Source: Bacteroidales bacterium
GTDB lineage: Bacteria > Bacteroidota > Bacteroidia > Bacteroidales > WCHB1-69
Assembly (NCBI GenBank): GCA_017443175.1
Contig: JAFSOZ010000003.1
Coordinates: 289,892-353,891, forward strand
Direction: 5' to 3'
Length of the DNA: 64,000 bases
A program made the translations under genes and the position numbers. Below are positions 1 through 50,303 of this stretch, one piece after another (the stretch's first letter is position 1; each line of letters starts with the position of its first letter). The notes under the pieces are model-generated. The model saw only the letters and a program-made list of their open reading frames with translations, was not told the origin of the DNA and did not search any database.

Positions 1-3000
1 AACGTGATAATTAACACCGCCATTGCCGTTCAAACCGGTGAATACAGTAGAATCAACACCATTCAATGAATATGTGAAGTTAGGATTCGGGTTTGTAATG
101 GTAATAGTACCAGTACCGAGAGAAGAACAATCTTCGTCATCAACATGAGTAGCAGTAATATGGTATTCTGGCTTCACAACATGCAAATACTGCCATGGAA
201 TTGATAAATAACATTCGAAAATCTTATGCTCTTGAACGACCATATAGTATCCGTCGGGCAAGCTATCAATAATGAAGTTATGGTCAGCAAAGTTATCTTG
301 ATCACGTTCAATATCCCATACATACCTACCAGCTTCAGGACTATACATCCAACGAGCCAAGAAATAGTTATATTCGTTGTTAGGATTGGTAATCTGAACC
401 TTATTGTCCGGATGAGCACAATCAGTACCATTGGTGTAAGTAGCTTTAACAGTATCAAACACCAAGATGCTATGAGGAACCTCAACGTTAAAATTAATAC
501 CGCAGTTATGGTCATCCTTAATAGTCATAGCGTAAATTTGGTCAGCTAAGCTGTCAAATACAACAGCAGTACCGGCAACACCAATAATCGTTTCACCAGC
601 AAGAGTGTAGGTAAATCCAGTCATAACTTGGTTAGCAGGAACGGTAACAGAACCATTCTGACCATGGTAGCCACCGAACATATATTCACAATAATCATTA
701 TCATGAATTGTAAGAGTCGGAATAGCAGGCACAGCCGTACGTGAAGGCATGGTGAAAGGTTGGACAAACGTACAATTACCAGAAGAAACGATGGTAATAG
801 GATGATCGCCGACAGAAAGGCTATCGAATGCCAATGTGCCATTGTTACCACGAACAGTTTTACCATCTACAGTATAGGTGTATGTCGGATTAGAGTTGGC
901 AATATAAAGAATACCATTGTCCATTGTACAATCAGCTGTATCAATTGTAACAATATGAGTGGTAGGTGTATCCGTAACGTCAAGTACAGTCACGTCATTA
1001 GTAACGAAATGACAGCCCTTAGGAGAAACAACATACACGCGATAGGTATCTTGATACAACCAGTTGAACATAATCGGGGTAATCACAGTAGAATCACTTG
1101 TGATAACCTCACCGTCAGTAAAGTGAGTGTCACTTGAAATCTGATAGACATAGTTCTCAACATTAGGAGTAACTTGGACCGAACCTTCATAAGGATTCTC
1201 ACACTTGAAATTGTCGCGGAGACGAGTAGCCGTGAACGGAGCATTAAGATCAGTCGTGTCGTGTTTTACAGTGTCGGTGAAAGTAGCATAACAACCGTGA
1301 GTAGTATAAACCGTGAAGTCGTATGTATTCTGAACAAGGCCAGTGTAAACATAGCTAATCGGGCGATACGGTGTATAGTTGTCACCATTCCACTTGTAAC
1401 CGGCGATCTCAGCAGTGTCATTCAAAACATTGATAGTGAAAGTACCATCGTAGATAGGATTATTCATAGCATCAACTGCGCCATCGCAATAGGTGTTCGG
1501 AGTAGTGACAAACTCAATGTCAGTACGAACAGGTGTACGATAAACAAGAGGAGAAACTGTCATAATGCTAGAACAACCAGCCTGATCTGTAACAGTCAAT
1601 GTGTAGGTATGAGCTGCAGTGGTCATAGTCACATCAATGGTCTCTGTGGTTGCACCAGTGGACCAAGCCCAAGTGCAGGTACCGATAGCATTGACAACGG
1701 TCGGGGTGAGCGTAGTAGCAAGAGGCTCACAACCAACATTGCTAGAAGCGATATCCGTGATATTAACGGTGTTGGCCGGCATCTTCACATTGATAACGTG
1801 AGTGTATGTCAAGCAAGGAACTGCATCAGGATTATTCTGGTTACGAGGAGCTGTGATGGTAATCACAACAGTGGTATCGTGATTGACGAAAGTACCAGGA
1901 GTAACATCCTGAGTAATCTCCATCTCACTCAGAGAGAAGCAATTATGTTGTACAGTCAGCGGGTTGAAATAAACGTTAGTAGAGACAAAGTCAGGAACAC
2001 TGATAACGCAATCATTACGTCCGGAAACTAACGGCATCGTTATTTCTGTGATAGCAGTAACAGTCAGCGTATCCTCTGCTCTGAGAGCACCGTAGATATT
2101 GAATGCGGTAGTGGCAGAGCAGTTCTTCATGTTGGTCACGGTGAGATATGTGGTGTATAAAGTGTCACAGTTCTCACAAGCCATCTTGAACATGTTGGTG
2201 TAGGTGTGCTTGTTCAAAACATCGGAAGCACCAGACCATGTATAACCGAGGCTCTGGTAATTGATGACAGAGTCAGGAAGGTTAGAAACTGAGTTGCCAG
2301 ATTGTACATAGAAGTCGCCATAGTTGGGGCAAAGGGTGTCGCCATCATGGATCGGGTTGCCGGTGTTTTCAGGATGGCTGATAATCTCAGCGGTAGGCAG
2401 ACGGTAGAAGTGGACAGCATTGGAGGTGTCAGCAGCAACACAACCGAGAGAATCGGTAACCGTCATGATAAAGTGAGAAGAGGTGTTAAGCATCTGGTCA
2501 ACAGGAGCAATAACAGCTTCAAGATAGTTGTTAGAATCCGGAGTAATGATGGACTGACCAACAACAGAAATCTGTGACCATTGATAAGTATAAGGTCTGT
2601 CAGCATTCATGACAAAGTTGTCATTGAAATGCATATTGGTCGTAACGTCAGCACAAAGTTCAAGCGTATCAATCGTGATAGCACCATGGGCAATGTACAT
2701 AGCAGCCGGTTTGTGAATATCAAATACCGGAGTCTTCGCAGAGCTATTGCCGCAAGCATCGGTAACAACAGCATAAATCGTCACCAGGTTGGTGTCGGCG
2801 AAGATATTGAGATTGCCATCGGCCAAAACATTGGTGTTGTTGATGTAGAACACCACCGTGTCGAAAGCAGACTCAGTACAATTATAAGTAACATGAATAT
2901 TCGTGTCGTTATCAAAGATGTTACGCAGTGTAGCGTATGAAGGAACATCGTAAGTACAAGCAGTATCACGAACAGGGTTCACATTGATACGGCCAGAGAT

Positions 3001-5286
3001 AACGGGCTTGAAATCATTGTTAATAGTAAAGATCTCAGAAATAGTGTTGGAGTGGTTGCCACAAGCATCAACAGCCTCGTATGTACGAGTCACGATGGTC
3101 TGGCAAGCAGTATGGGAAGTAACCACGTCTGTAACATTGAGGGTGTTCACGTTCACACAACCATCAATGATAGTACCGACTGCCGTAGCAGGAACAGTGG
3201 CAGTGCTATCGGCTATGACAGCGAAATCAGCAAGCGTATAAGGAGCAGGAACAGCAGAAGAGTCGCAACCACTCAAGGTGCGGATCTTGTTGCCCAATGT
3301 GTCAAACGCAGCGCCGGTAGTATCCCATGCCATAACAGGGTTCTCGATATCCTGAGCCTTGATAGTATAGGTACGAGTCATTTCATTTTGACATCCTTTA
3401 ATGGTAGCTGCCGTAATATGGACAGTATAGGTGTCAACCTGGTTGCAAACCATGGAAGCGTTTACTGTGAGGTTGGTGTCATTGGAGAGAGAAACATTGT
3501 TCTTGAACCACTCATAAGTAACAGTAGGAAGAACATCGTTATAGTCAGGCTCAATGGAAGAAACCATACTGTTCATTGTAACAGAAGCACCTGGACAAAC
3601 CACGAAATCAAGTTGAGTGGAATCAACAACGAATTCAGGAGTCATAAAGAACTCGAATGTCACAGAATCATATTTAGCCGAGAAGGTATTCGTGTTGGTA
3701 TTGACCGTATAAAGATAGAAGGTAATGACCTTGTCTTCGTTCTCGGGATTCAGTTCTGTCAAATCCAGACTGATGGTGTCTCCGATCTGTTTCAGATATG
3801 CAGCGGCGTGAGTAGGATAACCCAAGTCATCTTCGGTGTACCATCTGATTTCTGTGGAGCAGAAATCCTGAGGATCCAGATGAGCACGGAGCACGACCGG
3901 AGAGTTGGCTTCCAGAGTCTCATTACAATAAGAATAATAATGAGCACCTTCCAGGATCGGAGGGAAGAGGTCGCGTACGTTCACCACGACGGTATCAACC
4001 TGACCACCACAACCGATGGTATCATCATCCATGGCGTCATAATAGAAATTGAACTGACGAGCATAGAACGGATATTGACCAGCAGTTTGGGTCAGCTGGT
4101 TCAGAGACAGAAGTTGGGACATGTCGGTAGTCCAGCTCACACCGTTCTCAGACCAACGGATTTCATGACCGATGATGCCAGGGGCATCCAAGTCAACCTC
4201 GGTCACAAGACCAAGCAAGTCAGCTGCGGTGAAATTCTCGTCACGGCAGAGGTTGGTGTCTCTGGCCACGATATCGGGATTGATACGGGTATAGAGTTGA
4301 AGAGTATCGATACGTTCCACAATCCAGTGGTCGCAAACATAGTCACCGAAGAGAACATAATACAGACTTTCTTCTGTGAAAGCATAAAGGGTAGAACCAG
4401 TGGGGGTCACTTGGCCACGGCCATACATGAATGTCTCGCCGTCGCAGATGGATTTTTCATGAGCAGTGGTCACGAGATAATGCAGAGAGTCTTGATAAAG
4501 GATCTGGCCGCAGCAGCTCTGGTGGCCGCCGATATACATTTCAGGATTCTGGGAACCGTCCATCGTGAAGTCATAGTCAGTACCACCGATACGTTCACGG
4601 ATACGAACTACGAGAGCATAATTACCAACTTGTTTCCATTTGATGACAAAATCAGTAGTGGAGTGTTCACTTGCGAGGAAAGGCAGATAGAAATAGTCGA
4701 AGTTATACGTGTACATTACATGCGTATAACCGGCAGCGTGGTGAGACTCATCAAAGTATGCAGGTGCGAGCGGATTAGCCTGGCGTGCGCCCGGGAAGTC
4801 ATTGTGATTGACATGCCAAGTACTGGGATCGCAACCACAAACACCATCGCCATTTTCTACGATACCACCCAGCCAGTTGATGTTCTGGCATACGCCGGCA
4901 GCGTTAAGCTGATCATAGCGGGTGTAGATGCCGATTTCTGCATAGTCTGACAGATCACCATTTACCAATTGGCCGTCACGATAAAGCAGCCACTCAATGG
5001 AGACTTTAGTCCCACAGTTAGCACCTGTCGGGAAATGAAGTCTGTAAATGTCAGTGCTGTCTTTACGGGCGATGTTAAGAACATTGTTCAACACAAGGTC
5101 CATGCCGGCACTGGTGTCTTGAGCAATCCCAGTACCGTCCAGGTTGGCAATATGCTGGGCCGTCACCGGCTGCATGTTTTCAACCCAGAAACAGCATGAT
5201 GGATTGCTACTTTGCGCTTGAGCTGTGAAAAAGCTCATCATCGTAAGCAGAACGCTTAGCAAGCAAATTGATAATAGTTTTTTCAT
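1..5286 (-). CDS. Giant secreted SprB-repeat / Ig-like adhesin, N-terminal 1762 codons; C-terminus lies beyond the window start
   Basis: ATG at 5286 (plus-strand cat 5284-5286) is followed by the signal peptide MKKLLSICLLSVLLTMMSFFTAQAQ. I hand-translated the minus frame codon by codon from 5286 to base 1 and found no stop (no TTA/CTA/TCA in plus-strand phase 1). The ORF therefore runs off the left edge, which explains its absence from the ORF track. Repeated modules include TRTYEAVDACGNHSN, IYAVVTDACGNSS and TYTLTVTDQAGCSS. At least 5 SprB-type repeats lie near the edge (e.g. DCSSLGTGTITITNPNPNFTYSLNG). Plus-strand ORFs 760-1137, 1174-2031, 2581-2940 and 3052-4950 are antisense shadows of this gene. 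Confidence 0.85.
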   Translation of the reverse strand, partial: MKKLLSICLLSVLLTMMSFFTAQAQSSNPSCCFWVENMQPVTAQHIANLDGTGIAQDTSAGMDLVLNNVLNIARKDSTDIYRLHFPTGANCGTKVSIEWLLYRDGQLVNGDLSDYAEIGIYTRYDQLNAAGVCQNINWLGGIVENGDGVCGCDPSTWHVNHNDFPGARQANPLAPAYFDESHHAAGYTHVMYTYNFDYFYLPFLASEHSTTDFVIKWKQVGNYALVVRIRERIGGTDYDFTMDGSQNPEMYIGGHQSCCGQILYQDSLHYLVTTAHEKSICDGETFMYGRGQVTPTGSTLYAFTEESLYYVLFGDYVCDHWIVERIDTLQLYTRINPDIVARDTNLCRDENFTAADLLGLVTEVDLDAPGIIGHEIRWSENGVSWTTDMSQLLSLNQLTQTAGQYPFYARQFNFYYDAMDDDTIGCGGQVDTVVVNVRDLFPPILEGAHYYSYCNETLEANSPVVLRAHLDPQDFCSTEIRWYTEDDLGYPTHAAAYLKQIGDTISLDLTELNPENEDKVITFYLYTVNTNTNTFSAKYDSVTFEFFMTPEFVVDSTQLDFVVCPGASVTMNSMVSSIEPDYNDVLPTVTYEWFKNNVSLSNDTNLTVNASMVCNQVDTYTVHITAATIKGCQNEMTRTYTIKAQDIENPVMAWDTTGAAFDTLGNKIRTLSGCDSSAVPAPYTLADFAVIADSTATVPATAVGTIIDGCVNVNTLNVTDVVTSHTACQTIVTRTYEAVDACGNHSNTISEIFTINNDFKPVISGRINVNPVRDTACTYDVPSYATLRNIFDNDTNIHVTYNCTESAFDTVVFYINNTNVLADGNLNIFADTNLVTIYAVVTDACGNSSAKTPVFDIHKPAAMYIAHGAITIDTLELCADVTTNMHFNDNFVMNADRPYTYQWSQISVVGQSIITPDSNNYLEAVIAPVDQMLNTSSHFIMTVTDSLGCVAADTSNAVHFYRLPTAEIISHPENTGNPIHDGDTLCPNYGDFYVQSGNSVSNLPDSVINYQSLGYTWSGASDVLNKHTYTNMFKMACENCDTLYTTYLTVTNMKNCSATTAFNIYGALRAEDTLTVTAITEITMPLVSGRNDCVISVPDFVSTNVYFNPLTVQHNCFSLSEMEITQDVTPGTFVNHDTTVVITITAPRNQNNPDAVPCLTYTHVINVKMPANTVNITDIASSNVGCEPLATTLTPTVVNAIGTCTWAWSTGATTETIDVTMTTAAHTYTLTVTDQAGCSSIMTVSPLVYRTPVRTDIEFVTTPNTYCDGAVDAMNNPIYDGTFTINVLNDTAEIAGYKWNGDNYTPYRPISYVYTGLVQNTYDFTVYTTHGCYATFTDTVKHDTTDLNAPFTATRLRDNFKCENPYEGSVQVTPNVENYVYQISSDTHFTDGEVITSDSTVITPIMFNWLYQDTYRVYVVSPKGCHFVTNDVTVLDVTDTPTTHIVTIDTADCTMDNGILYIANSNPTYTYTVDGKTVRGNNGTLAFDSLSVGDHPITIVSSGNCTFVQPFTMPSRTAVPAIPTLTIHDNDYCEYMFGGYHGQNGSVTVPANQVMTGFTYTLAGETIIGVAGTAVVFDSLADQIYAMTIKDDHNCGINFNVEVPHSILVFDTVKATYTNGTDCAHPDNKVQITNPNNEYNYFLARWMYSPEAGRYVWDIERDQDNFADHNFIIDSLPDGYYMVVQEHKIFECYLSIPWQYLHVVKPEYHITATHVDDEDCSSLGTGTITITNPNPNFTYSLNGVDSTVFTGLNGNGGVNYHV

Positions 5287-5389: not shown

Positions 5390-5397
5390 CAAAAATA
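5390..5397 (-). promoter_or_regulatory. Bacteroidetes -7 promoter box (TAnnTTTG) for the giant adhesin gene
   Basis: Plus-strand caaaaata is TATTTTTG on the minus strand. It sits in an AT-rich intergenic region about 100 nt upstream of ATG 5286. Confidence 0.5.
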
Positions 5398-5639: not shown

Positions 5640-7586
5640 TTAGCGGACGAATCTGAATTCTGTGCGACGGTTTGCGGCCCTGCCCTCCTCTGTGGAGTTA
5701 TCGGCGACAGGCTGCCGTTTTCCATAACCGGCATAGCTCAGACGTTCGGCGGGAATTCCACGCTCCACCAGATAGTCGTACACCGCCTTGGCTCTGCTCT
5801 GGGAGAGTCTGTCGTTATACTCGTCGCTGCCCTGGTCGTCGGTATGGCCGCCAATCTCTATCTTGACATTATTGTGAGACAGGTAGTCAACCAGTTTGTC
5901 GAGCTCCATATATGACTCGGGCTTCAGCTCGCTGCGGTTAAGGTCGAAGAAGATATTCTTCAGCACTACCACCGTGCCCACATCAGCACGATGCAGACGG
6001 ATATCCTTTATATAAGGTGAAATCTCCGTATAGGATTTCTCCACCTGGAAATTTTCAGAATAGAAAGGATAGTTGGCACAGGAGACATTGAGCATGATAT
6101 TGGTGCCAGTTTGGATACATGCCAGATACTCTCCGTTCTCGGCATCCGAAGTGGTGTGTGCCACCACCTTCTTCGTATTCAGATCCACCATTTCAAGCAC
6201 GGCCTCTTGCGGAGCACCCGTCAAAGCATCTGTGACATGACCTTTGATATAGGTAACCGGATTGGGTCTCAGGGTCTCATCCAGTTCAAAGCTGTACAAA
6301 TCAAGTCCGCCTTCACCGCCGTCCTTGTCGGAAGCCATATAAGCGACCGTTCCTTTTGCATTGATGAAGATGTTGATTTCATCCGCCGGGGTGTTGATGG
6401 GATATCCCAAGTTCTGGGGTTCGGTCCAGGAGCCGTCAGCTTGCAACACTGCATAGTACAGGTCATAGCCGCCCATCCCCACTCTTCCGTTGGAAGCGAA
6501 GTAGAGCGTGCGCCCGTCACTATGGATGAATGGCGCTGCATCATCGCCCGGCGTGTTGATGACAGGTCCGAGATTCTCCGGAGCCGTGAAGGCACCCTCA
6601 GAAGTCATAGTGGTTTTCCAGATGTCCTTGCCGCCGAAGCCGCCCGGACGGGAGGAAACAAAATAGATCGTATGGCCGTCCGAAGCCATCGAAGGCTGGC
6701 TCTCCCATGCAGGTGAATTCACGGGCGCGCCAAAGTTACGCGGCCGCGACCACTTCTGCCCTATCATCTTGGACCAGTACAGATCGCAACTGCCCATACC
6801 ATAGTCGGCATCGCACATGGTGTATAACAAATAATTGCCATCTGGGGAAATGCACTGTGCACCTTCATTGTAGCCACTCTTGATGGGAGCACCGATAGGC
6901 TCGCGCTTCTGCCACTGACCGTTACCATCCTTGACAGAGAAATAGAGATCCTCTTCGTTCAGGCAGAAAGCACAAACCGTATGTTTGTCCTTGGGTCTCT
7001 TTACCGTATATATCAAAATGGAATCATCCGCCGTGATAGAAGCAAGGTACTCATCCCATTCCGAATTGATGTTTGCTCCGAGATTTACGGGCTGGAATTT
7101 CACAGGATGCTCCATTGCCTCAATGCCAAACCGACAATTGGCGATTCCTCGCTGGGCTTCCGAAAGCACCTCCGTATATTGTAAGCCTTTCTGCATGAAA
7201 AGTTCGTAATTCCGAAGGGCATCACGGTACTGCGCACACTTGGCACCCTCATTGGCAGCAATGAAATAGAGCATCGGATCAGGATCGCCAATCAACGCAA
7301 TGGCTTTGTTATAGCACTTGACGGCCGAATCGGATTGCAAGGAGAAATTGTACACATCCCCCATTATGATATACGTATCTGGATATTGGGGATCTTTCTG
7401 TTCGGCTTGCTTCAACAAGGCCAACGCCTTTTCAAAATTGTGCTCGTTGACACATTGTTCAGCCTTTTTACAGAGAGCTGCCGCTTTGGAATTCTTCTGT
7501 GCAAATGCAACATTGCTCGTGACAATGAAGACGGTCAGCATTAATGTATATATATATACTATTTTATATAAATAACCATTCTTCAT
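5640..7586 (-). CDS. OmpA-family outer-membrane/periplasmic protein with N-terminal TPR, TolB-like PD40 beta-propeller repeats and a C-terminal OmpA peptidoglycan-binding domain
   Basis: The C-terminus reads NIFFDLNRSELKPES...GHTDDQGSDEYNDRLSQSRAKAVYDYL...RRTEFRF (OmpA_C). PD40-like repeats include SPDGNYLLYT, ASDGHTIYFVSSR and HSDGRTLYFASN. The track start at 7592 is a GTG; the first ATG is 7586 (MKNGYLYKIV...AFAQ signal). Confidence 0.85.
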   Translation of the reverse strand: MKNGYLYKIVYIYTLMLTVFIVTSNVAFAQKNSKAAALCKKAEQCVNEHNFEKALALLKQAEQKDPQYPDTYIIMGDVYNFSLQSDSAVKCYNKAIALIGDPDPMLYFIAANEGAKCAQYRDALRNYELFMQKGLQYTEVLSEAQRGIANCRFGIEAMEHPVKFQPVNLGANINSEWDEYLASITADDSILIYTVKRPKDKHTVCAFCLNEEDLYFSVKDGNGQWQKREPIGAPIKSGYNEGAQCISPDGNYLLYTMCDADYGMGSCDLYWSKMIGQKWSRPRNFGAPVNSPAWESQPSMASDGHTIYFVSSRPGGFGGKDIWKTTMTSEGAFTAPENLGPVINTPGDDAAPFIHSDGRTLYFASNGRVGMGGYDLYYAVLQADGSWTEPQNLGYPINTPADEINIFINAKGTVAYMASDKDGGEGGLDLYSFELDETLRPNPVTYIKGHVTDALTGAPQEAVLEMVDLNTKKVVAHTTSDAENGEYLACIQTGTNIMLNVSCANYPFYSENFQVEKSYTEISPYIKDIRLHRADVGTVVVLKNIFFDLNRSELKPESYMELDKLVDYLSHNNVKIEIGGHTDDQGSDEYNDRLSQSRAKAVYDYLVERGIPAERLSYAGYGKRQPVADNSTEEGRAANRRTEFRFVR

Positions 7587-9902: not shown

Positions 9903-9910
9903 TATTTTTG
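9903..9910 (+). promoter_or_regulatory. -7 promoter box TATTTTTG for the 9977-14942 operon
   Basis: TAnnTTTG match 67 nt upstream of ATG 9977. It forms the left arm of an 11-bp perfect inverted repeat with 9942-9952. Confidence 0.5.
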
Positions 9911-9942
9911 CCGTCAATGAAATGTTGTTTTGATTTGAATTG

Positions 9943-9950
9943 CAAAAATA
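9943..9950 (-). promoter_or_regulatory. -7 promoter box TATTTTTG (minus strand) for proS-mazG-ompA-like operon
   Basis: Plus-strand caaaaata, about 70 nt upstream of proS ATG 9873. Confidence 0.45.
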
Positions 9951-9976
9951 CGAAAATAAGCCATAAGGAGGTCATT

Positions 9977-11329
9977 ATGAAAAAACAATTTTTATTTGTT
10001 CTAATCCTCGCAGCAATTTGTATAACATCTTGTCAAACAGGTTCTTTCGCCTACTACGACGACATCTACTCCTCATCGGGCGATGACCAGTACAAGATCA
10101 TGCGTGCGGAAAGCCAGAACAAGCCCGCAAACAATCCGAAGACCGTCACCTATTATGAGGAGATTCCGGCTCCGGATTCTATCTCCTATCAATACAATGA
10201 GGATGGAAGCATCGGCACCACCTATTATTATAATGAAGACGATTACTACGACTACTATTACACCTCCCGCCTGCGCCGCTTCCACACGGATGTATATAGC
10301 GGCTGGGGATATTACGATCCTTATTTCACCAATCTGTATTGGTATGACTACTGTCCATCAAACTGGGGCTTAAGCATTTACATGGGTTACAACTGGTGGT
10401 GGCCAAACTACTACTATCGTCCGTATTACTATAATTACGGCTGGTATGACTATGGTTTCCGCTATGGTTGGGGCTGGGATTATTACAATCCTTACTGGCA
10501 CAACCACGGATGGGGATGGTACCATCACCACAACTGGGCTATCGACTATTATCACAACAACTATGACCACAACCACTCGTTCTATTATGGTCATCGCAAC
10601 AGCATAGGACCCGTTTTGGGAAATCAAGGAAACGACGACAGAGGTATGCGTCCCAATTTCGATTACAGCAACAGTAACAACGACAACAATAATCACTACT
10701 CTGTTGTTTCCTCTTCACCAGCCTCATTCAGCGATCGTTACGATGGTTTAGCCGCATCTTACAGTCCTTCGGGGGGCGGCGGTTCCAGCTCTGGTTCCCA
10801 TAATCCTTCTTCAAGACCCACCACACAACCTACTCCTACTCCTACGCCTCGTCCTGCCAACACACCAGCCTCCGCAAGCACAAACCGGACAAATGTAAAC
10901 ACGAACAACAGTCGGACTTACGACAATAATCCGACCTCTAATTCAACCCCCAACACCCGTCCCAACTACAATTCTTCCAGAACTCCAACAAACACATCTG
11001 CCTCCACTTCAAGACCTTCGTCCAACAATAGCCGGAGCACTACTACCTGGACAACTCCGAGTTCCTCCACCCACGACCGTCAGCCGAGCAACTCACACAA
11101 CAGCCGGCCAGGTTCTTCCTACAATCAAAGCAACACTTCCAGACCAAGTTCAACTTACAATAACTCAAACTCTTCCAGATCTTCTTACAATAATTCTTCT
11201 TCCAGAAGCAATTACAGCTCCCCGTCCAGCAGCAGCAGCTCTTCTCGCAGCTCATACAGCGGATCCTCACGAAGCAGCAGTTCGTCATACAGCAGCAGCT
11301 CTTCACGCAGCAGCGGGGGAAGACGATAA
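9977..11329 (+). CDS. Lipoprotein of extreme low complexity: Tyr/Trp/His/Asn/Gly-rich core followed by a Ser/Thr/Asn/Pro/Arg-rich tail
   Basis: ATG 9977 gives MKKQFLFVLILAAICITSC, a lipobox with Cys. The core contains YYYRPYYYNYGWYDYGFRYGWGWDYYNPYWHNHGWGWYHHHNW. The tail ends ...SSSSSSSRSSYSGSSRSSSSSYSSSSSRSSGGRR. I recognise no family. Confidence 0.7.
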   Translation: MKKQFLFVLILAAICITSCQTGSFAYYDDIYSSSGDDQYKIMRAESQNKPANNPKTVTYYEEIPAPDSISYQYNEDGSIGTTYYYNEDDYYDYYYTSRLRRFHTDVYSGWGYYDPYFTNLYWYDYCPSNWGLSIYMGYNWWWPNYYYRPYYYNYGWYDYGFRYGWGWDYYNPYWHNHGWGWYHHHNWAIDYYHNNYDHNHSFYYGHRNSIGPVLGNQGNDDRGMRPNFDYSNSNNDNNNHYSVVSSSPASFSDRYDGLAASYSPSGGGGSSSGSHNPSSRPTTQPTPTPTPRPANTPASASTNRTNVNTNNSRTYDNNPTSNSTPNTRPNYNSSRTPTNTSASTSRPSSNNSRSTTTWTTPSSSTHDRQPSNSHNSRPGSSYNQSNTSRPSSTYNNSNSSRSSYNNSSSRSNYSSPSSSSSSSRSSYSGSSRSSSSSYSSSSSRSSGGRR

Positions 11330-11363
11330 ACAAAATGGTATTATCATCTTAAATCTCACAACA

Positions 11364-12869
11364 ATGAAAAGGATTTTAACCAGCATAGTAATGTTGTGCC
11401 TAATCAGTACAACTTTCGCACAAGGGGACTATGAGGCATTCCGTTTCTCCCAGATCGAGTACCAGGGAACGGCACGTTACATGGGTGCTGGCGGAGCATT
11501 CAGCGCCACAGGCGGAGAGTTTTCCGCCATTAGCGTAAATCCCGCAGCCATTGGACTTTACAAGCGCCACGAAGCTTCCATTACCCCATTATCTTTGGCC
11601 TTTACCAATAACAATTCCACCTATTACGGGGAACCCAGCTTTACTCAAAAAGCCAAATACACAGTTCCTCAATGCGGACTGGTCATCACCAACCACATCG
11701 ATAACTCCAATTGGAACTACTGGCATTTCGGTTTCGGGTACAACCGCATCATGGACTATAACAACACGTTCCGAGCCAATGCCCCTGTTAACAAATCTAT
11801 GGCTGACGTCATACTTCCACACGCCAACGGTATCGCTTACAATGCGCTTACTGGTGATGCTTCTCTGGCATGGAGCACTTGGCTGATAGACACAATACCT
11901 GGGACTAACAATCAGTATTATAGCCCTTTCACAGACGCAAAACTCAACAATGAAGCACTTGTAAAAACCTCCGGAGCCATGGATGAAATCAGCTTCTCCT
12001 TCGGCGGCAATTATTCTGACAAACTCTTCATCGGTGCCACTCTCGGCGTGCCCGTGCTCAGCTACAAAGAGGTCATTTCCTACGCCGAATACGCCACTGA
12101 TTCCGCCACCTTGGCCAAAGGAATCGCCTCTTTCCAAACCAACAGCGCTCAACAGAACTCCAGTGCCGGTATCAATTTGAAATTAGGCGTTATATATCAG
12201 CCTGTCAGTTTCCTGCGTTTAGGCGCATCTTTCCAAACTCCTTCCTATTTCTGGAAAGTCAAAGATTCGTACAGCCGGGATATGATCTCCTACTATACCA
12301 ACGGCAAGAATTCCGACACGTGGAGTTATGACAACAACTATCGCTTCTCGCTCACCACTCCGCTCAAATTCAATGTAAGTGCCGCATTCCTCATCAACAA
12401 AAGAGCATTCATATCCGCTGAATACGATTTCATCGACTACTCCATGGCCAAACTGTACGCCGACGACTACAATTTCAACACAGAAAATCAGGCTATTGAC
12501 AACAAATACGGCATCTGCAACACATTCAAACTCGGTGCCGAAGTAAACGTCACCTCCAAGTTCCTGTTGCGTGCCGGTTACAACTACAAAACCTCTCCTT
12601 ATAAAAACTTCAAATCCAGTTTCAACGGAAGCGCACATTATGGTTCTGTCGGCTTCGGAATCCGCACCAAATACGTCTTCTTTGATTTGGCCTACGTGCT
12701 GAAATACTCCAAAGACAGCTACTGGTTGTATCCCGATACGGTCCAATATCTTACCGCCAGCGAATACCAGAACCTTATTCAAAACAGTCTTCCCGACCGT
12801 TACACCTCTGCCATCTCCACCAGAGGCATATCCCACAGAATTGTCGCTACAATCGGTTGCAAATTCTAA
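11364..12869 (+). CDS. FadL/TodX/OMPP1-like outer-membrane beta-barrel channel
   Basis: Signal peptide ...TFAQ, then a FadL-type N-terminal hatch pattern: YEAFRFSQIEYQGTARYMGAGGAFSATGGEFSAISVNPAAIGLY (G-rich, NPA). The rest has alternating aromatic beta-strand character and ends in a terminal ...GCKF. Confidence 0.6.
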   Translation: MKRILTSIVMLCLISTTFAQGDYEAFRFSQIEYQGTARYMGAGGAFSATGGEFSAISVNPAAIGLYKRHEASITPLSLAFTNNNSTYYGEPSFTQKAKYTVPQCGLVITNHIDNSNWNYWHFGFGYNRIMDYNNTFRANAPVNKSMADVILPHANGIAYNALTGDASLAWSTWLIDTIPGTNNQYYSPFTDAKLNNEALVKTSGAMDEISFSFGGNYSDKLFIGATLGVPVLSYKEVISYAEYATDSATLAKGIASFQTNSAQQNSSAGINLKLGVIYQPVSFLRLGASFQTPSYFWKVKDSYSRDMISYYTNGKNSDTWSYDNNYRFSLTTPLKFNVSAAFLINKRAFISAEYDFIDYSMAKLYADDYNFNTENQAIDNKYGICNTFKLGAEVNVTSKFLLRAGYNYKTSPYKNFKSSFNGSAHYGSVGFGIRTKYVFFDLAYVLKYSKDSYWLYPDTVQYLTASEYQNLIQNSLPDRYTSAISTRGISHRIVATIGCKF

Positions 12870-12875
12870 TCAACT

Positions 12876-13661
12876 ATGAACAAATGCGTTGTCATCACCT
12901 TTCTGATAACCATATCCATTGGTTTAGGACAAGCGCAATCCTTGTTCGATGCAACGTATGACCACTTCACAACCGACAATCAGAACAATATCTACACCTG
13001 GAGGGGGGCCAGCCTGACCAAATATTCAACCCAAAACACACCCGCTGGAGAAGTCCTGTGGGTGTTTGACAAACCCGTATATGGCAACATCTCATCGGTA
13101 GATGCCAATGTCATCAAAACCCTTGTCTTCTATCAGGAATCCGGCAAAATAGTGTTGTTAGACAACACCTTATCCCCTATCGGGAACGAACTTGATCTTT
13201 TCGAGCACGATTTGACCTCTGTAACACTGGCCGCACTCTTCGGCAACAATCGAATCGTCTTGTTTGACGAGACCAACCAGGATCTATACATCACAGACCT
13301 GAACCTGAACGTCGTCTCCAAAACACATTGCTCTTTCCCAGAAGAGATTGCCCCGTTCAGCCTGCAATCAGAACCCGACCATTGCATCATGCTGATAGAC
13401 TCCATGAAAGGCATATTCTTTTTCGATAGATTCGGCACATTTGAACAACGACTGCCTATAACGGGTATCCTTTCCGCCCAACTGTCTGGAGAGAACATCA
13501 TCTACCTGAAAGACAACACTCTATATCAATACAATCGTAAAAAACTAGAACAATCACAGTCCTATCCATCTTTTATTTCCAACAGCAAAGAACTCCGCTT
13601 AACAGGATCCTGGCTGTTCATTCTGGACAAGGACGGTATTCTACACACCATACAAGATTAA
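12876..13661 (+). CDS. Secreted hypothetical protein (repeat/beta-rich, possibly propeller-like)
   Basis: Signal peptide MNKCVVITFLITISIGLGQAQ. It starts 6 bp after the barrel gene. No recognisable motif. Confidence 0.6.
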   Translation: MNKCVVITFLITISIGLGQAQSLFDATYDHFTTDNQNNIYTWRGASLTKYSTQNTPAGEVLWVFDKPVYGNISSVDANVIKTLVFYQESGKIVLLDNTLSPIGNELDLFEHDLTSVTLAALFGNNRIVLFDETNQDLYITDLNLNVVSKTHCSFPEEIAPFSLQSEPDHCIMLIDSMKGIFFFDRFGTFEQRLPITGILSAQLSGENIIYLKDNTLYQYNRKKLEQSQSYPSFISNSKELRLTGSWLFILDKDGILHTIQD

Positions 13662-13682
13662 GATCAAGAGACCACAAGCACT

Positions 13683-14942
13683 ATGAGAAGATACCTCTTT
13701 ACAATCGCCCTGCTATTGAGCATAATTCCGGCATTCAGCACCCATATCCTGATTCCGATGGATTTGGAGCAAAAAAATCATCTGAAAGCATACGGAATAG
13801 CCTATTACGCAGTAGCCCATCAGATTGACATGAGCTGGCTCCTGAACTACCGCGGAGGCAGCTTCATGTGCGCGTACAATGATGCTGTGGAAAACGAATG
13901 CCGTGTCCGTGGCGTTTCATTTCAGGTCATCGCGGACATACAGGCCCAACAGATTCTCAGCGAGATTGCGGCTGTAGAGAACAATATGAACGAAATCCGG
14001 CTCACCAAAGAGCCCAAGATCGCCGTTTACTCGCCAAAGAACAAGCTTCCTTGGGATGATGCCGTTACTTTGGTGCTCACATACGCGGAAATCCCCTATA
14101 CCGTGCTTTATGACGAAGAGGTAATCAACGGTGAATTGCCCAAATATGATTGGCTGCACTTGCATCACGAAGACTTCACCGGACAATATGGTAAATTCTG
14201 GGCCAGCTATCGTAATGCCAAATGGTATATTGATGATGTGAAAGAGAATGAAGATCGGGCCGCACGATTAGGATTTGCAAAAGTTTCACAAATGAAATTG
14301 GCTGTAGCCAAGGGTATCCGTGACTTTGTGGCTGGCGGCGGCTATCTATTCGCCATGTGCTCCGGTCCCGACAGCTACGACATCGCACTGGCCGCCGAAG
14401 GTGTGGACATTTGCGATGTAATGTTCGACGGCGACCCTATGGATCCACAGGCCCAAAGCAAACTCAACTACGACAACTGCTTCGCCTTCACCAACTTCCA
14501 TATCGTCACCAACCCATACGAGTATGAGGTTTCGGACATTGACGTGAAGCCTACCCTGCACATGACGAACAAGAGCAACGATTTTTTCACCCTGTTTGAG
14601 TTTTCCGCCAAATGGGACCCTGTTCCCACCATGCTTTGCCAGAACCATCTAACCGTCATTCCTGGGTTCATGGGCCAAACCACGGCCTTCCGCAAAGCGG
14701 TCATAAAGCCCACCGTCACTATCCTGGGAGAGTCTGCTCAATTTGACGAGGCGCGATACATTCACGGGGAGTATGGCAAAGGCACCTGGACCTTCTATTC
14801 CGGCCACGACCCTGAAGACTACCAGCATTTGGTAAACGACCCACCTACCAATCTGGACCTCTTCCCGAATTCGGCGGGATACCGCCTGATTCTGAACAAT
14901 GTGCTATTCCCTGCAGCCAAGAAACAGCAGCAAAAGACATAA
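13683..14942 (+). CDS. Secreted hypothetical protein with class-I glutamine-amidotransferase-like / DUF4159-like features
   Basis: Signal peptide ...IIPAFS. The pattern KIAVYSP...WDDAVTLVL...KYDWLHLHHEDF...VAGGGYLFAMCSGPD resembles the GATase1-like (ThuA/DUF4159) fold. This assignment is tentative. Confidence 0.55.
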   Translation: MRRYLFTIALLLSIIPAFSTHILIPMDLEQKNHLKAYGIAYYAVAHQIDMSWLLNYRGGSFMCAYNDAVENECRVRGVSFQVIADIQAQQILSEIAAVENNMNEIRLTKEPKIAVYSPKNKLPWDDAVTLVLTYAEIPYTVLYDEEVINGELPKYDWLHLHHEDFTGQYGKFWASYRNAKWYIDDVKENEDRAARLGFAKVSQMKLAVAKGIRDFVAGGGYLFAMCSGPDSYDIALAAEGVDICDVMFDGDPMDPQAQSKLNYDNCFAFTNFHIVTNPYEYEVSDIDVKPTLHMTNKSNDFFTLFEFSAKWDPVPTMLCQNHLTVIPGFMGQTTAFRKAVIKPTVTILGESAQFDEARYIHGEYGKGTWTFYSGHDPEDYQHLVNDPPTNLDLFPNSAGYRLILNNVLFPAAKKQQQKT

Positions 14943-17028: not shown

Positions 17029-19116
17029 TTAATGCAGAACAACAATTTTTTTCTTGTAGGCAACAGTGCCGTCTTGGACAATTAACGTATAGAACCCATC
17101 AGGCAATGTCCTGACATTCAAATCAACAGCTCCCAAAACATTCTTTTCCGCACTTACCACACGTCCAGTGACATCATATAACATCACCACGGCTTCATCC
17201 AAGTGAGCTGGAACTCGAACATGTATGCTGGAATATGCAGGATTGGGGTAAATTGTGATTTCGTTCTCATCAAATTCCTCCAAGCCATCCGGAGAATAAT
17301 CTGAAGTCCAAGACAGCTCAAAACCATCTCCGCACAAATAATTGTCAGTCACAAATTCAACGAATACATAATTGCTGAAGAAAAGCAAATCTCTCGGACT
17401 GTCATTTTCAGAAAAAAGTGCAATCTGAGGTTTCTCTGGGTCAGACCAATCATAGAATGCTAACCGGTCACCTGCAGCCAAATCCAATTCGGAAAAAGCA
17501 AAATTGATCATTGAAGCATGGGGCAGATAGAATCGCCAGCTGCAATTAGCGTTATATTTGTACGAAGTTGGTCCGCTTCCGTCGGTCAGTGTACCATGAT
17601 ACTGTTGAATCAGGTCATCATGACAGAAGTTTTCATGTCTGGCCATTCTGAAATCCAGACGCCATCCCTGTGCTGTCACAGAATCATCGCTTCTGAATGT
17701 GATATACAGACTGTCGGAATTAAAGTAATAGGTGGTTCCCTGCTCTACCGTTCCGGAGAGCGTCAACAAAAGATTGCCCTGATCAGGATGTCCATCCCAG
17801 AAGCTCAAAGAGTCATGATTTTCCTGGGTTTCAAACGATTTGATTTTTATCATAAATCGATATGCTGCACCTTCAGTGAGCACAAACATGCAATCCGAAT
17901 TGTTCTGATAATCGGATGGGCCGCTGCCATCCTCAATCGTTCCATCCGAACAATGGATTTCACGATTAGCGCACATGTACGGGTAGTTCTCATCCCCGGG
18001 ATAGATATTTCTGATAATCCGCTGGGAATGCTGAAAACCATTTATCACATTGGAATCGCTATCGCTTGCAGTCAAAACATAGTAACCATTGGAACTGCCG
18101 CCCCACCCGAAATTGAAATGATAGTAATCGTCATTTTCATAGCCATCGCACACAAAAGCGTGGCCGCCATCATCGCTATGTCCAGCATAATACAAAGGTC
18201 TTTTGGCATTCAAATCCTCTTTTATGAAATTCTTCCACTGGGCCAACGTATAATCGTAACGGCGCAGGAATTGACAATTAGAGGAATAGCCGAAATAAGA
18301 AGCAAGTGCGTCAGGCACGCTTTCAGAATAGGCGCCTGATCCATCGGCACCATACATCATATCGACAGCAGTGGCACAATGGAATATCAATTTGGCCACT
18401 TCATTGTTAAAATGGCTCAGCTGATCCGTCATCGCATCATAACAATAGGTCTGTTGAGCAAAATTCACATAATAATCGCCATAATCCGTATGGTTGGTAT
18501 GGGAGCCCCAACCATGTGACGGATATCGATAATAATACATGATCATAGCCATTGCCACGGCGACGCAGCCATTGGGTGTACGCTGGTCATAGCCAGAGGG
18601 TGCATTCGCATCATGCGGGGAATATGCATTATAATATTTGGTCTGATTCCAAAGAGCCGTCAACAAGGGAGCAACACTTTGCGAAGTTTGGTCTTTAATT
18701 CCAGAAGCAGTTCTCAGAGACTCCCAGGCTTGGACCACCTTTAACGATGGTGTAGTCCCATGTTCCCGTGCGTATTGGATTTGTTTTGCATAGGAATCCA
18801 GCCACAACAGGGCTGCGGGAGCGGCCTCCTCCATGTAAAACTGTTGGTCCAAGGAATATGCCAGCACCGGAAAAACAGCATCATCGGCTGATAACACGAT
18901 AAATCCCTTGGAAAAATTCGCCACCAGCAGCAGGGTATCGGATCCGTCAGTTACAAAATGACAATCCTTAAGTTCCAGCGCACAAGCACTTTTCTGTTTG
19001 AAAGCGTTCACAGCAGCAGAAACAAGTTGTTTTCTGCCAACAGGTTTGGCAAACAAGGAAACGGATAAACAAAACAGCAAGAGCAGCCCTATAGATTTCT
19101 TTGAATTTGTCAGCAT
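17029..19116 (-). CDS. Peptidase C10 (streptopain family) with I69-type propeptide, two CUB domains and a T9SS type-A C-terminal sorting domain
   Basis: Catalytic Cys context NGCVAVAMAMIMYYYRYP. Catalytic His context DGGHAFVCDGYENDDYYHFNFGWGG. CUB-like modules are CSDGTIEDGSGPSDYQNNSDC... and GTLTDGSGPTSYKYNANCSW.... The tail is ITIYPNPAYSSIHVRV...LPDGFYTLIV. I chose ATG 19116 because a -7 box overlaps the upstream ATG at 19143. Confidence 0.85.
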   Translation of the reverse strand: MLTNSKKSIGLLLLFCLSVSLFAKPVGRKQLVSAAVNAFKQKSACALELKDCHFVTDGSDTLLLVANFSKGFIVLSADDAVFPVLAYSLDQQFYMEEAAPAALLWLDSYAKQIQYAREHGTTPSLKVVQAWESLRTASGIKDQTSQSVAPLLTALWNQTKYYNAYSPHDANAPSGYDQRTPNGCVAVAMAMIMYYYRYPSHGWGSHTNHTDYGDYYVNFAQQTYCYDAMTDQLSHFNNEVAKLIFHCATAVDMMYGADGSGAYSESVPDALASYFGYSSNCQFLRRYDYTLAQWKNFIKEDLNAKRPLYYAGHSDDGGHAFVCDGYENDDYYHFNFGWGGSSNGYYVLTASDSDSNVINGFQHSQRIIRNIYPGDENYPYMCANREIHCSDGTIEDGSGPSDYQNNSDCMFVLTEGAAYRFMIKIKSFETQENHDSLSFWDGHPDQGNLLLTLSGTVEQGTTYYFNSDSLYITFRSDDSVTAQGWRLDFRMARHENFCHDDLIQQYHGTLTDGSGPTSYKYNANCSWRFYLPHASMINFAFSELDLAAGDRLAFYDWSDPEKPQIALFSENDSPRDLLFFSNYVFVEFVTDNYLCGDGFELSWTSDYSPDGLEEFDENEITIYPNPAYSSIHVRVPAHLDEAVVMLYDVTGRVVSAEKNVLGAVDLNVRTLPDGFYTLIVQDGTVAYKKKIVVLH

Positions 19117-19140
19117 TCGTTCAGATTTTTTAAAAGGCCG

Positions 19141-19148
19141 CAAATATA
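19141..19148 (-). promoter_or_regulatory. -7 promoter box TATATTTG (minus) for the C10 peptidase operon
   Basis: Plus-strand caaatata, immediately after the upstream terminator and about 25 nt upstream of ATG 19116. Confidence 0.5.
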
Positions 19149-46070: not shown

Positions 46071-46078
46071 TAATTTTG
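46071..46078 (+). promoter_or_regulatory. -7 promoter box TAATTTTG
   Basis: 25 nt upstream of ATG 46103. This argues for the MKRFLFF start. Confidence 0.5.
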
Positions 46079-46102
46079 CAGACGACAATAATCCCTTGCA
46101 TT

Positions 46103-48925
46103 ATGAAAAGATTTCTATTTTTTATTTTCATATTGTGTGTCAGCATAATGGTGCTTAGGGGCCAAACCACCGTTCTGATGGGTTCACAAGCCTCCGTAAC
46201 CAATTGCAATATATTAATTTACGACGATGGTGGTCTTACCGGCAATTACGCACCCAACGTCAACGAGACGCTCACCATTTTGTCCAACGACCCCAACAAT
46301 GGTTGTGTCATGGTGGAAATCACCGACTTAGACATTGATGTCTCCGACACGCTGACCATATACGACGGCGTGGGCACCAGCGGGCCGGTGCTCCACAAGA
46401 TCAACAACGACAACTACGATCCCACTGGCACCTTCCGCTATGCCGCCACCATACAGAACACCACGGGGGCCCTCACTTTGCAGTTCACCTCCGACGGGTC
46501 CGGCGAGGGCACCGGTTTCGAAATCCGCACCAGTTGCATCGCACCCTGCCAACGTATAACGCTCCACATCGACTCTGCCAACTGTTCCCATCTGCCTCAC
46601 CTCAACCCCGACGACGGCTATTATTACGTGGACGTATGCCCATACGACACCTTCTATTTCAGCGTGCGTGGCGAGTATCCGGACAATGACTTCAGCTATC
46701 ATCAAGCGGACAACACCACTACATTCCTTTGGGATTTCGATTTGGAGGAGATTGACAGCTTAGGCGGCAATTCCGTGAATTACTATTTCACGCCTGGCAG
46801 AGGGTACGATGTGTCCATCAGCGCTGCCGACCAGTCGCAATGTCTGTCGCTGATTCCCATCACTTTCCGCGTGCGCACGTCGAAGAACCCGATCCGCGAC
46901 ATCAGCCAGCTGCCACCCATCTGCACAGGCCAGCAGCTGGACCTGAGTGTGGGTTATGACCAGATTTCGAGTTTGCAGTTGGACTCTGTTGGCAGCGAGC
47001 AGATCACCTCTCTTGGAGTTACCGACACAGTGTTCCTGCCCGACGGCATCAGCTGTCCGCCCTACGGCTACTATTACCGCTCATACGTCAACTTCACCTC
47101 TTTTGCGCCCACCGCCACCATCACCAATGCCAACGACATCCTCTTTGTCCGCATCAAGATGGAGCATTCGGCCATCGAGGATATCCGTATCAAGCTGTTC
47201 TGTCCGAATGGCAGTTCATGCCGCATCGTGCCCGACTATCAGAACGACGGATGGGGCGGCATCACCCACTATTTCAGAACAAATCTGGGACGTGCCAACC
47301 GATTGCAGGAGGTAACCAGCTGCAATCCCGCCCAAAACCCCATGGGCGAAGCCTGGAACTATGTCTGGTCCAACAATACCACACTGGGTTACCAGTACGC
47401 AAGCGGCACCTACGGCTATTGCTATGAGCCCAGCAATATCCACTACATCTATAATCCCATGTGGGATGACGGCAGCTACTCCTACGTGATTGATTCAAGC
47501 AATGTGGCCAACATGACGCAGATCTACCACCCCAACCAGAGTTTTGCAGGCATGGTAGGCTGCCCGCTGAACGGCAACTGGTACATTGAAATCCAGGATT
47601 TGTGGACCAACGACAACGGATACCTGCACGAGTGGGAGATTGCGCTGGACCCGCATCTGCTGCCGCAGAACTGGTCATACGCCGTACACGTGGACACCAC
47701 ATACATAGTCGGCCCCGGAGCCAACAGCATGTACATCGTTCCCGATGTGTCCGGCGACATTTACTACACCGCCGTGGTGGTTGACGATTTCGGGTGCACC
47801 TACGACACCCTGATGCCTCTCCATGTGGTGCAGTCACCAAAACCCGAGTTGGGTGAGGATTTCCACATTTGCTACGGCGACCGGGCCATAATTACCAGCA
47901 ACTACAACGAGCCCAACACCACCTACGTGTGGAACACCGGCGACGACACCCCCGACATCCAAGTGGCATCAGCGGGGACTTACACGGTTTTCATAGCCAC
48001 TACGGACAGCACCAACAACCTGACCTGTTACGGCAGCGACACCATCAAAATAAGTGTGCTGGAAGTGCCCCATGCGGATTTTCGCATGGCAGACACCACC
48101 GGTTGCGCGCCCGCCACAGTCCGTTTGTTTGACGAGACCACCGTTGAAAACCCCAACTATTTGTACGAATGGATGATATTGCACGAGGACGGCTCTTTGG
48201 CATACGCCTCCCCCAACAAAAACCCGATAATCACCATTGAAGAACCCGGAATCTATACGGTAGGATTGCGCGTACACACACCCGAAGGCTGCTACGACTC
48301 ACTCTTTAAATGGAATTGCCTGCATATTTACCACCAACCGTTGGCCGAATTTGTTTCCGAACCTGAAATCTCCTTATACAGCGAAAGCAACGGCCTCATC
48401 CATTTCCACAATTACGCCGATTCCACCTTTGTGGAAAGCGGCGACATCAAACTGCGATGGGATTTCGGCGACGGCAGTTCCGACACGGCGGCTTTTTCAC
48501 CCGACCACACCTACGCTTCGTGGGGAGATTACGATGTCACCTTGAACCTTATAAGCAGCTTCGGGTGCTCCAGCAGCATCACACACACGGTGGTGATTGA
48601 GGACGACCTTGTCTTCCCGAATGTCATCACCCCCAACGGCGATGGGACCAACGACTGCTTTGCCATCCAGAACCTGAACATCCGCTACAACCCGGAGGAT
48701 CCCGACGAATACCGGTCCAACGAGCTGTACATCTATGACCGATGGGGGAAGATGGTCTATCATGCAAAAAACTACGACACCTACGCGGTTAACGGGGAGA
48801 TTGTCAGGGGAACGCAATATTTCGACGCTTCCCAGCTCAGCGACGGCGTGTATTACTATACATTTTATTATAAAGGAAAAGTGAAAACCGTTGATTATCA
48901 CGGCAGCATTACCGTGATAAGATAA
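46103..48925 (+). CDS. T9SS type-B (gliding-motility-associated) C-terminal-domain surface protein with CUB-like, proprotein-convertase P-domain-like and PKD-like modules
   Basis: Signal peptide MKRFLFFIFILCVSIMVLRGQ. CUB-like module: NILIYDDGGLTGNYAPNVNETLTI...TIYDG...LQFTSDGSGEGTGFEI. P-domain-like module: VRIKMEHSAIEDIRIKLFCPNGSS...GNWYIEIQDLWTNDNGYLHEWEIAL. Type-B CTD: VFPNVITPNGDGTNDCFAIQNL...YIYDRWGKMVY. Confidence 0.85.
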   Translation: MKRFLFFIFILCVSIMVLRGQTTVLMGSQASVTNCNILIYDDGGLTGNYAPNVNETLTILSNDPNNGCVMVEITDLDIDVSDTLTIYDGVGTSGPVLHKINNDNYDPTGTFRYAATIQNTTGALTLQFTSDGSGEGTGFEIRTSCIAPCQRITLHIDSANCSHLPHLNPDDGYYYVDVCPYDTFYFSVRGEYPDNDFSYHQADNTTTFLWDFDLEEIDSLGGNSVNYYFTPGRGYDVSISAADQSQCLSLIPITFRVRTSKNPIRDISQLPPICTGQQLDLSVGYDQISSLQLDSVGSEQITSLGVTDTVFLPDGISCPPYGYYYRSYVNFTSFAPTATITNANDILFVRIKMEHSAIEDIRIKLFCPNGSSCRIVPDYQNDGWGGITHYFRTNLGRANRLQEVTSCNPAQNPMGEAWNYVWSNNTTLGYQYASGTYGYCYEPSNIHYIYNPMWDDGSYSYVIDSSNVANMTQIYHPNQSFAGMVGCPLNGNWYIEIQDLWTNDNGYLHEWEIALDPHLLPQNWSYAVHVDTTYIVGPGANSMYIVPDVSGDIYYTAVVVDDFGCTYDTLMPLHVVQSPKPELGEDFHICYGDRAIITSNYNEPNTTYVWNTGDDTPDIQVASAGTYTVFIATTDSTNNLTCYGSDTIKISVLEVPHADFRMADTTGCAPATVRLFDETTVENPNYLYEWMILHEDGSLAYASPNKNPIITIEEPGIYTVGLRVHTPEGCYDSLFKWNCLHIYHQPLAEFVSEPEISLYSESNGLIHFHNYADSTFVESGDIKLRWDFGDGSSDTAAFSPDHTYASWGDYDVTLNLISSFGCSSSITHTVVIEDDLVFPNVITPNGDGTNDCFAIQNLNIRYNPEDPDEYRSNELYIYDRWGKMVYHAKNYDTYAVNGEIVRGTQYFDASQLSDGVYYYTFYYKGKVKTVDYHGSITVIR

Positions 48926-50238: not shown

Positions 50239-50303
50239 GGATGGGTGAAGGGTAAAGGGTGAAAAGGTGAAAGGGGTAAATGGGGTGAAGGGTGAAAGGG
50301 AAA
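50239..50303. repeat. C-free G-run word repeat (GGGTGAA / GGGTAAA variants), 7 G-runs of 3-4
   Basis: atgggtgaagggtaaagggtgaaaaggtgaaaggggtaaatggggtgaagggtgaaaggg. There is no C on the plus strand from 50237 to 50306 by hand reading. It abuts the ispE start codon. Confidence 0.8.

Follow-up and report, generated by a model that had tools for sequence, protein, structure and literature searches.

Proteins exported through a type IX secretion system (T9SS) reach the cell surface as one of two classes of cargo. Type A cargo, whose C-terminal sorting domain (CTD) contacts PorV through a single conserved lysine, such as K1110 of RemZ (PMC10994853), exits the translocon on PorV and is then either released or joined to anionic lipopolysaccharide (A-LPS) (PMC10994853, PMC9143113); type B cargo, for which SprB serves as an example, is PorV-independent and held by its cognate PorP-like protein, in this case SprF (PMC10994853, PMC9143113). 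PorE, a further component of the T9SS, is a lipoprotein with TPR, β-propeller, CRD and OmpA_C-like domains (PMC9143113, PMC12773672). Here we compare with these systems a giant gene that lies at the edge of a 64,000-nt stretch of DNA from a Bacteroidales bacterium (contig JAFSOZ010000003.1; hereafter the window). We conclude that its product is probably a giant T9SS type A cargo, which would be secreted, relieved of its CTD and anchored at the surface in the manner of an adhesin. Giant type A surface cargo is already known; what is worth recording here is the module that bookends the protein, the mosaicism of its gene and its PorE-like neighbour.

The gene lies on the minus strand, where a sequence-only reading of this DNA had seen a frame running from the ATG at 5286 to base 1. 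Indeed, translation gives 1762 codons and no stop; in-frame stops sit just 5' of this ATG, and all orthologues share the start MKKLLSIC. The frame had escaped the list of open reading frames (ORFs), as had also been suspected: that listing drops ORFs that run off the end of the source sequence, which explains why it showed only scrappy plus-strand entries here. Two contigs from different samples (L011 and L012; ENA ERZ28019094 k141_999384 and Logan SRR12529382), located through the exact protein of the upstream TPR/PD40/OmpA neighbour after correction of its ATG start, are 100% identical to the window across all 5286 nt, and because two independent assemblies thus carry the same sequence, an assembly artefact is unlikely. 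In these identical contigs the frame stays open to at least codon 3215. The gene as recorded there encodes 3748 aa, or 3733 if a later start is taken, and the record lists PF18962.

This record places the sorting domain beyond the window, as had been claimed, and the relatives of the gene tell us of which type it is. A scan with the final 600 residues of the window protein, run over species-representative genomes, returned seven orthologous loci in metagenome-assembled genomes of uncultured Bacteroidales, several of them rumen-derived, each with one ORF of 3725-3809 aa that ends in ...VYPNP...GVYVLQIVN...RKLVITK. All seven exceed the curated cut-offs, for TIGR04183 with 36.7-38.4 bits (cut-off 23) and for PF18962 with 45 bits (cut-off 27), and in none of the seven is there a match to a type B CTD (CHU_C PF13585 or TIGR04131). 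Across the 13 family members checked, all of them relatives of the window allele, one lysine (K3732 of 3737, five residues short of the C-terminus) never varies; it fits the type A CTD lysine described for PorV contact (PMC10994853). Past base 1 the sequence-only reading had expected both a sorting domain and perhaps an SprF/PorP-like partner, and only the first of these is there: a type A CTD is on record, and the next gene in the orthologues encodes an ABC transporter, not SprF/PorP. Such a partner adjoins the gene at no syntenic locus, the window allele's own downstream gene being unread.

From these features we can sketch how the protein might reach the surface. It would be exported by Sec via its N-terminal signal peptide, which we judged by eye from the translation (MKK, a hydrophobic core and AQA followed by Q), in agreement with the earlier claim, and which is near-identical in orthologues and paralogues. 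The T9SS translocon with PorV would then recognise the CTD, and the PorU attachment complex would cleave it and join the new C-terminus covalently to A-LPS. The outcome would be a long, C-terminally anchored fibril of ~30-35 β-sandwich modules, made up of ~9 divergent PKD/HYR/Ig_7-like modules, 11 two-Cys Ig-like units and further modules. An N-terminal module (NTM) would stand at the distal tip, where it would most likely bind a ligand, and a diverged copy of the same module would sit at the base beside the CTD. The fibril may also be glycosylated: the window protein has 30 instances of D-[ST]-[AILVMT], the O-glycosylation motif of Bacteroidota, against 10.4 ± 3.0 in residue shuffles (~3x), and most of them fall in the middle region and the repeats. 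Such an excess suggests a glycosylated stalk, and part of it may come from the ...VTD(S/T)xGC strand motif. The window protein is acidic, with an isoelectric point (pI) of 4.35, and rich in Thr, Val, Asn and Asp.

To curated domain libraries this protein is almost invisible. The 1762 residues of the window protein gave zero matches in Pfam or NCBIfam at E ≤ 1, SprB-repeat, HYR and Ig-like profiles included, which is one of the outcomes that the sequence-only reading had named as refuting it, and against Pfam the 3215-aa extension gave Ig_2 alone, at E 0.009; no catalytic domain was found by Pfam across those 3215 aa. Its architecture had instead to be read from alignments of relatives, from Cys spacing and from predicted folds, and the resulting features are collected in Table 1.

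Table 1. Features of the giant gene and its 5' side, with window positions and the basis for each.
Feature	Position	Strand	Basis
N-terminal 1762 codons (47%) of the 3748-aa T9SS type A cargo gene (probable), running past base 1	1..5286	-	open frame and identical contigs
Signal peptide, aa 1-24, MKKLLSICLLSVLLTMMSFFTAQA, likely cut after AQA (next residues QSS)	5215..5286	-	read from sequence
NTM, aa 25-275, ending ...IGGHQSCCG	4462..5214	-	uncurated all-β module; alignments A2, A3
Middle region, aa 276-1178, ~nine divergent ~100-aa modules (S1-S9), including two HYR-like and PKD/Ig_7-like	1753..4461	-	motif reading and hhalign
HYR-like module 1, aa 649-760, contains TRTYEAVDACGN	3007..3342	-	regex match aa 733-749
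HYR-like module 2, aa 761-861, contains VVTDACGN	2704..3006	-	regex match aa 843-850
Tandem two-Cys Ig-like repeat (predicted fold), units 1-7 of 11	1..1752	-	iterative HMM
Units 1-4, aa 1179-1243, 1260-1337, 1356-1430, 1446-1510			
Units 5-7, aa 1526-1600, 1616-1697, 1713-1762 (unit 7 cut by the window edge)			
Candidate Bacteroidetes-type -7 promoter box TATTTTTG (fits TAnnTTTG)	5390..5397	-	~104 nt 5' of the ATG; A-rich leader after
PorE-like neighbour (TPR, PD40 β-propeller, OmpA_C-like; 648 aa), 5' of the giant gene	5640..7586	-	Pfam

The NTM is the most distinctive of these features. It is common to all relatives (alignments A2 and A3), and when 1.84 billion cluster representatives were scanned exhaustively with HMMER, just 119 proteins contained it, nearly all of them 2000-5900 aa long and with the module at residues ~23-300. 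A second NTM match is present in most carriers, and a few bear 7-8 copies of the module's last ~85 residues; in 7/7 orthologues a diverged second copy stands directly before the CTD (E 1e-8 to 1e-13). Por_Secre_tail is present in all 18 of the scanned proteins that bear the NTM or its sub-unit. An AlphaFold (AF2) model of the module is all-β (pTM 0.70, pLDDT 67.7), and neither by fold nor by sequence does the NTM have a significant match in the PDB; the top fold matches of the model, themselves insignificant, are AgI/II C-domains. A notably Cys-rich N-terminal region had been described, which the counts do not bear out, since the first 250 residues have 3.2% Cys against 2.7% overall. We regard the NTM as the likely ligand-binding head of the fibril, whilst conceding that as far as binding goes this is guesswork.

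The tandem repeat begins in the last third of the window protein, where Cys pairs 28-30 residues apart recur every 80-97 residues. A BLAST comparison of the window protein with itself showed no internal repeat, and the units were defined through Cys spacing and iterative searches with hidden Markov models (HMMs). Each unit holds two invariant Cys, with the consensus N..C....NG.I.....N....Y.Y...G...(variable)...L..G.Y..........C, and a full-length protein has 11 tandem units, all 11 of which lie at aa 1179-2134 in the window allele. The model of unit 4, predicted by AF2 from 22 paralogous units, has seven strands at a pLDDT of 86.6, and by fold it comes closest to PKD, IPT/TIG, SoxYZ and CEACAM domains (TM 0.4-0.6); the unit is thus predicted to be a divergent two-Cys PKD/Ig-like sandwich. 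All this supports the earlier picture of a giant, secreted and modular surface protein with Ig-like modules and a tandem ~80-aa repeat.

Are these units SprB repeats, as had also been proposed? The tandem ~80-aa units stand; their SprB type does not, reduced as it is to a weak resemblance to PF13573. We scanned 51 units singly against Pfam at E ≤ 10, 45 of them derived from orthologues, and PF13573 was the family most often matched, in 6/51 units, all orthologue-derived and sub-threshold (best E 9e-4), with generic Ig and PKD families next; among 13 family members one has a PF13573 match, at E 1.2e-3. None of the seven window units matches PF13573 at E ≤ 10, and the scans of the 1762-aa and 3215-aa proteins gave no PF13573 match either. 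Kinship with SprB repeats is therefore possible but weak. Two further unit matches, CBM77 (E 0.005, one unit) and DUF5640, were set aside as chance matches. The repeat profile gave no matches in a word-indexed search of a database, and among solved structures its best match is RemZ (8gl8, E 0.0018), in a segment that fits generic Ig-like families (Y_Y_Y, Ig_J, CarboxypepD_reg and PKD). We dropped this match as a sign of SprB kinship, RemZ being a type A homologue of RemA and the matched segment generically Ig-like.

Between the NTM and the repeat, the modules S1-S9 are weakly related to one another, as judged by hhalign of orthologue sub-alignments, and S5 pairs with S6 at 65% probability, across the end of the motif. 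The TRTY...DACGN modules had been called repeated, which is too generous: there is one full motif and one extra DACGN (Table 1). Neither HYR (PF02494) nor HYR_4C (PF23237) matches the window protein, so that its likeness to HYR stands at motif level. The relatives are more readily classified, with matches to Ig_7 in 6/13, to K319L-like PKD in 6/13 and to HYR_4C in 5/13. In the relative P0005, HYR_4C reaches 84 bits; in P0002 it scores 26.8 bits, just below the cut-off of 27, at aa 888-936, a region with a TRTY/CNN motif that resembles S5 of the window protein by motif, the pair not having been aligned. Besides these modules, the paralogues P0002, P0003, P0004 and P0007 have at least one inserted ~150-aa domain with the motif YSYSQQI(Y/F)T..E(V/I)..G.I.S..F, which the window protein is without.

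Compared with its neighbours the gene diverges much faster, and it is a mosaic produced by recombination. Against L003, ProRS is 98% and the OmpA-type neighbour 94% identical to the window, whereas the repeats are just 55% identical, and ProRS is 97-98% identical in both L002 and L003. In sliding-window comparisons, identity to L001 and L003 is 90-98% at aa 240-630 and 30-50% at aa 1500-1700; identity to L002 is 52-68% at aa 270-720, 83-92% at aa 720-990 and 75-80% at aa 1500-1650. Because the nearest relative thus differs by segment, we attribute the pattern to recombination between diverged alleles, and so fast a divergence, with recombination, is consistent with a molecule that is exposed at the surface and subject to diversifying selection. 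A paralogue-grade protein, P0003 (28-39% identity), sits at the same locus.

The order of genes at that locus is shared. In the orthologue loci ProRS and MazG come first, then the TPR/PD40/OmpA protein, followed by the giant gene and, beyond it, an ABC transporter, a TrmB-like methyltransferase and a NusG-like protein; the PorE-like gene adjoins the giant gene in 9/9 syntenic loci of other genomes (L001-L009). The OmpA_C domain of this neighbour matches PorE's C-terminal domain (6TOP) at E 1.2e-20, and OprF scores slightly better; as neither the CRD nor a lipobox Cys was seen in the product of 5640-7586, we call it PorE-like. In front of the giant gene itself, TATTTTTG may be a -7 box, going by its match to a consensus alone, and we give it low weight; no convincing inverted repeats, of the kind expected for phase variation by an invertible promoter, were found 5' of the gene. 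Three of the syntenic loci, L006-L008, come from entries titled 'Oscillospiraceae bacterium' or 'bacterium' and carry the Bacteroidales-type locus with the type A cargo gene, and these bins are probably mislabelled or contaminated.

Elsewhere in the window there are further genes with T9SS features. A cysteine peptidase of the C10 (streptopain-like) kind is encoded at 17029-19143 (minus strand) and combines two CUB domains and an Inhibitor_I69 propeptide with a T9SS CTD of type A; at 46076-48925 (plus strand) lies the gene for a 949-aa protein that has PKD and P_proprotein domains together with a T9SS sorting domain of type B (CHU_C). Since the window encodes proteins with type A and type B CTDs as well as the PorE-like gene, the genome must have a T9SS with both classes of cargo. 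No PorP/SprF-like partner is encoded by the next large ORFs 3' of the 46076-48925 gene; these lie on the opposite strand and specify a GHMP kinase (49474-50316) and a YitT-family membrane protein (50397-51260). Just downstream of a tRNA gene (51415-51488), a second giant ORF of 2180 aa occupies 51786-58328 (plus strand); its C-terminal domain is Fib_succ_major, and it also carries Gly_rich_2 and a Listeria-Bacteroides repeat. Diverging from ProRS, a conserved block of four genes (9908-14942, plus strand) encodes proteins of 473 aa, 501 aa (FadL/TodX-like), 261 aa and 419 aa; three of the four products have no Pfam match, and the block is also found in L001 and L011.

Several points weigh against our conclusion that the protein is a surface-anchored, adhesin-like type A cargo, and we set them out together. 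The argument rests on sequence and on predicted models, and for the last ~530 codons of the window allele on a database record that gives the product length and a Pfam match; a search of JGI metagenomes for exact matches to the end of L011 came back empty. Anchoring is not the only fate of type A cargo, part of which ends up in the medium (PMC10994853). A binding role for the NTM is a guess because its model is of moderate confidence (pLDDT 67.7) and has no fold match. Finally, two copies of the gene are broken: L001 has a single in-frame TAG (~14220, codon ~1408) where the window has TAT (Tyr), and in L009 (8001-18868) the gene is split into calls of 2696 and 926 aa, which overlap. These interruptions could reflect pseudogenisation, programmed events or assembly errors, and it follows that the gene can be lost or is prone to assembly error.

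A more ambitious reading, which we hold to be unlikely though worth stating, is that these proteins form an undescribed and narrow family of giant T9SS fibrils, with a new β-sandwich module of ~250 aa at the tip and beside the CTD, a locus that in this clade is fixed and adjacent to a porE-like gene, and recombination between alleles, so that the gene would be a strain-variable locus for surface identity or adhesion. In such a family, tethering to the cell wall via the PorE-like neighbour would be possible, instead of or besides attachment to A-LPS.

Of the competing explanations, the one that survives best is that the protein is a released or loosely attached component of a matrix, a coat, an S-layer-like structure or a biofilm scaffold, with no specific ligand. 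The release of some type A cargo (PMC10994853) would allow for this, as would the like modules at both ends, which could aid head-to-tail or lateral self-association, and the heavy putative glycosylation and acidic pI are in keeping with it. However, the gene occurs once per genome, at a fixed locus; a chain of such extreme length, forming a modular stalk by itself, is seen more typically in fibrillar adhesins than in S-layer proteins that form lattices; and the hypervariability clusters in the repeats and in parts of the stalk, as in exposed fibrils. We therefore consider a matrix role improbable. Somewhat more doubtful still is a mobile adhesin in the manner of RemA or RemZ, which would have a type A CTD yet travel by means of a gliding machinery, in a rumen member of the Bacteroidales that glides. 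Type A CTDs are compatible with motility adhesins, and RemZ is the solved structure closest to the repeat profile; however, because the RemZ segment is generically Ig-like, we read that match as a shared fold and not as orthology, no lectin domain was found, and no gld gene was seen among the window ORFs scanned, which cover part of the window. Lastly, a mobile gliding adhesin like SprB, with a type B CTD, held by an SprF/PorP-like barrel and propelled along the surface, is suggested by a giant, repetitive protein, by a first half-unit (C....NG.I.v......Y.Y) that resembles the SprB repeat motif and by the scattered PF13573 matches, yet with no SprF/PorP gene adjoining on either side, no PF13573 match in the window protein or its units and an array of 11 units against the far longer SprB, it is very improbable, and since the CTD type and the partner gene both fail, the SprB system itself is excluded.

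With the surface-anchored type A cargo as the preferred account, the identification as SprB, made in the sequence-only reading, is lost on three counts: the CTD is of type A, SprF/PorP is missing and PF13573 does not match the window protein. The puzzle that had come with it, that of a functionally unexplained adhesin in a genome taken to be Prevotella-like and non-gliding, falls away too, because type A cargo is routinely anchored at the surface of non-gliding Bacteroidales. This corrects a tempting mis-annotation: SprB-like motifs in large, repetitive T9SS proteins of gut and rumen Bacteroidales need not mean gliding, and here it is the CTD type and the neighbouring genes that decide the question. 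It also flags a family of 3.7-kaa surface proteins that is barely visible to curated domain libraries, with an uncurated terminal module in ~119 protein clusters and type A cargo in all 18 members scanned; defining the NTM as a domain family would better the annotation of T9SS cargo. Its mosaic hypervariability, moreover, makes the protein a candidate determinant of strain-specific adhesion or recognition in uncultured Bacteroidales with rumen-derived close relatives.

How, then, does this protein stand beside the systems that are already described? It is closest to the T9SS type A cargo, such as the surface cargo of P. gingivalis and Prevotella intermedia and the RemA and RemZ proteins of F. 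johnsoniae, with which it shares a Sec signal peptide, a TIGR04183/PF18962 CTD with the conserved lysine, a modular β-rich build, and a genome that has a PorE-like gene and encodes further T9SS cargo. Unlike most of these, it is far larger, lies almost wholly outside Pfam and has an uncurated NTM that is duplicated before the CTD, and it differs further in that no functional domain, such as a protease or a lectin, can be recognised in it. To the HYR/HYR_4C (PF23237), Ig_7 (PF19081) and PKD-like modules found in large surface proteins of Bacteroidota it is linked by its DACGN motifs, by the matches of its relatives and by the predicted PKD/Ig-like fold of its repeat unit, whereas its own modules are too divergent for any curated threshold. 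With SprB of F. johnsoniae it has in common its nature as a giant, repetitive, T9SS-exported surface protein and the C...NG.I.v....Y.Y half-unit motif, and it differs in its type A CTD, in lacking both an SprF/PorP partner and an sprCDBF-like operon, and in having 11 units. Giant fibrillar adhesins with Ig-like repeats are found elsewhere too, among them SiiE, LapA, the RTX-type adhesins and AgI/II of Gram-positive bacteria. These share with it a long β-sandwich stalk and a distinct terminal module, from which it is set apart by its T9SS route, its probable C-terminal anchoring to A-LPS and the absence of any sequence relationship.

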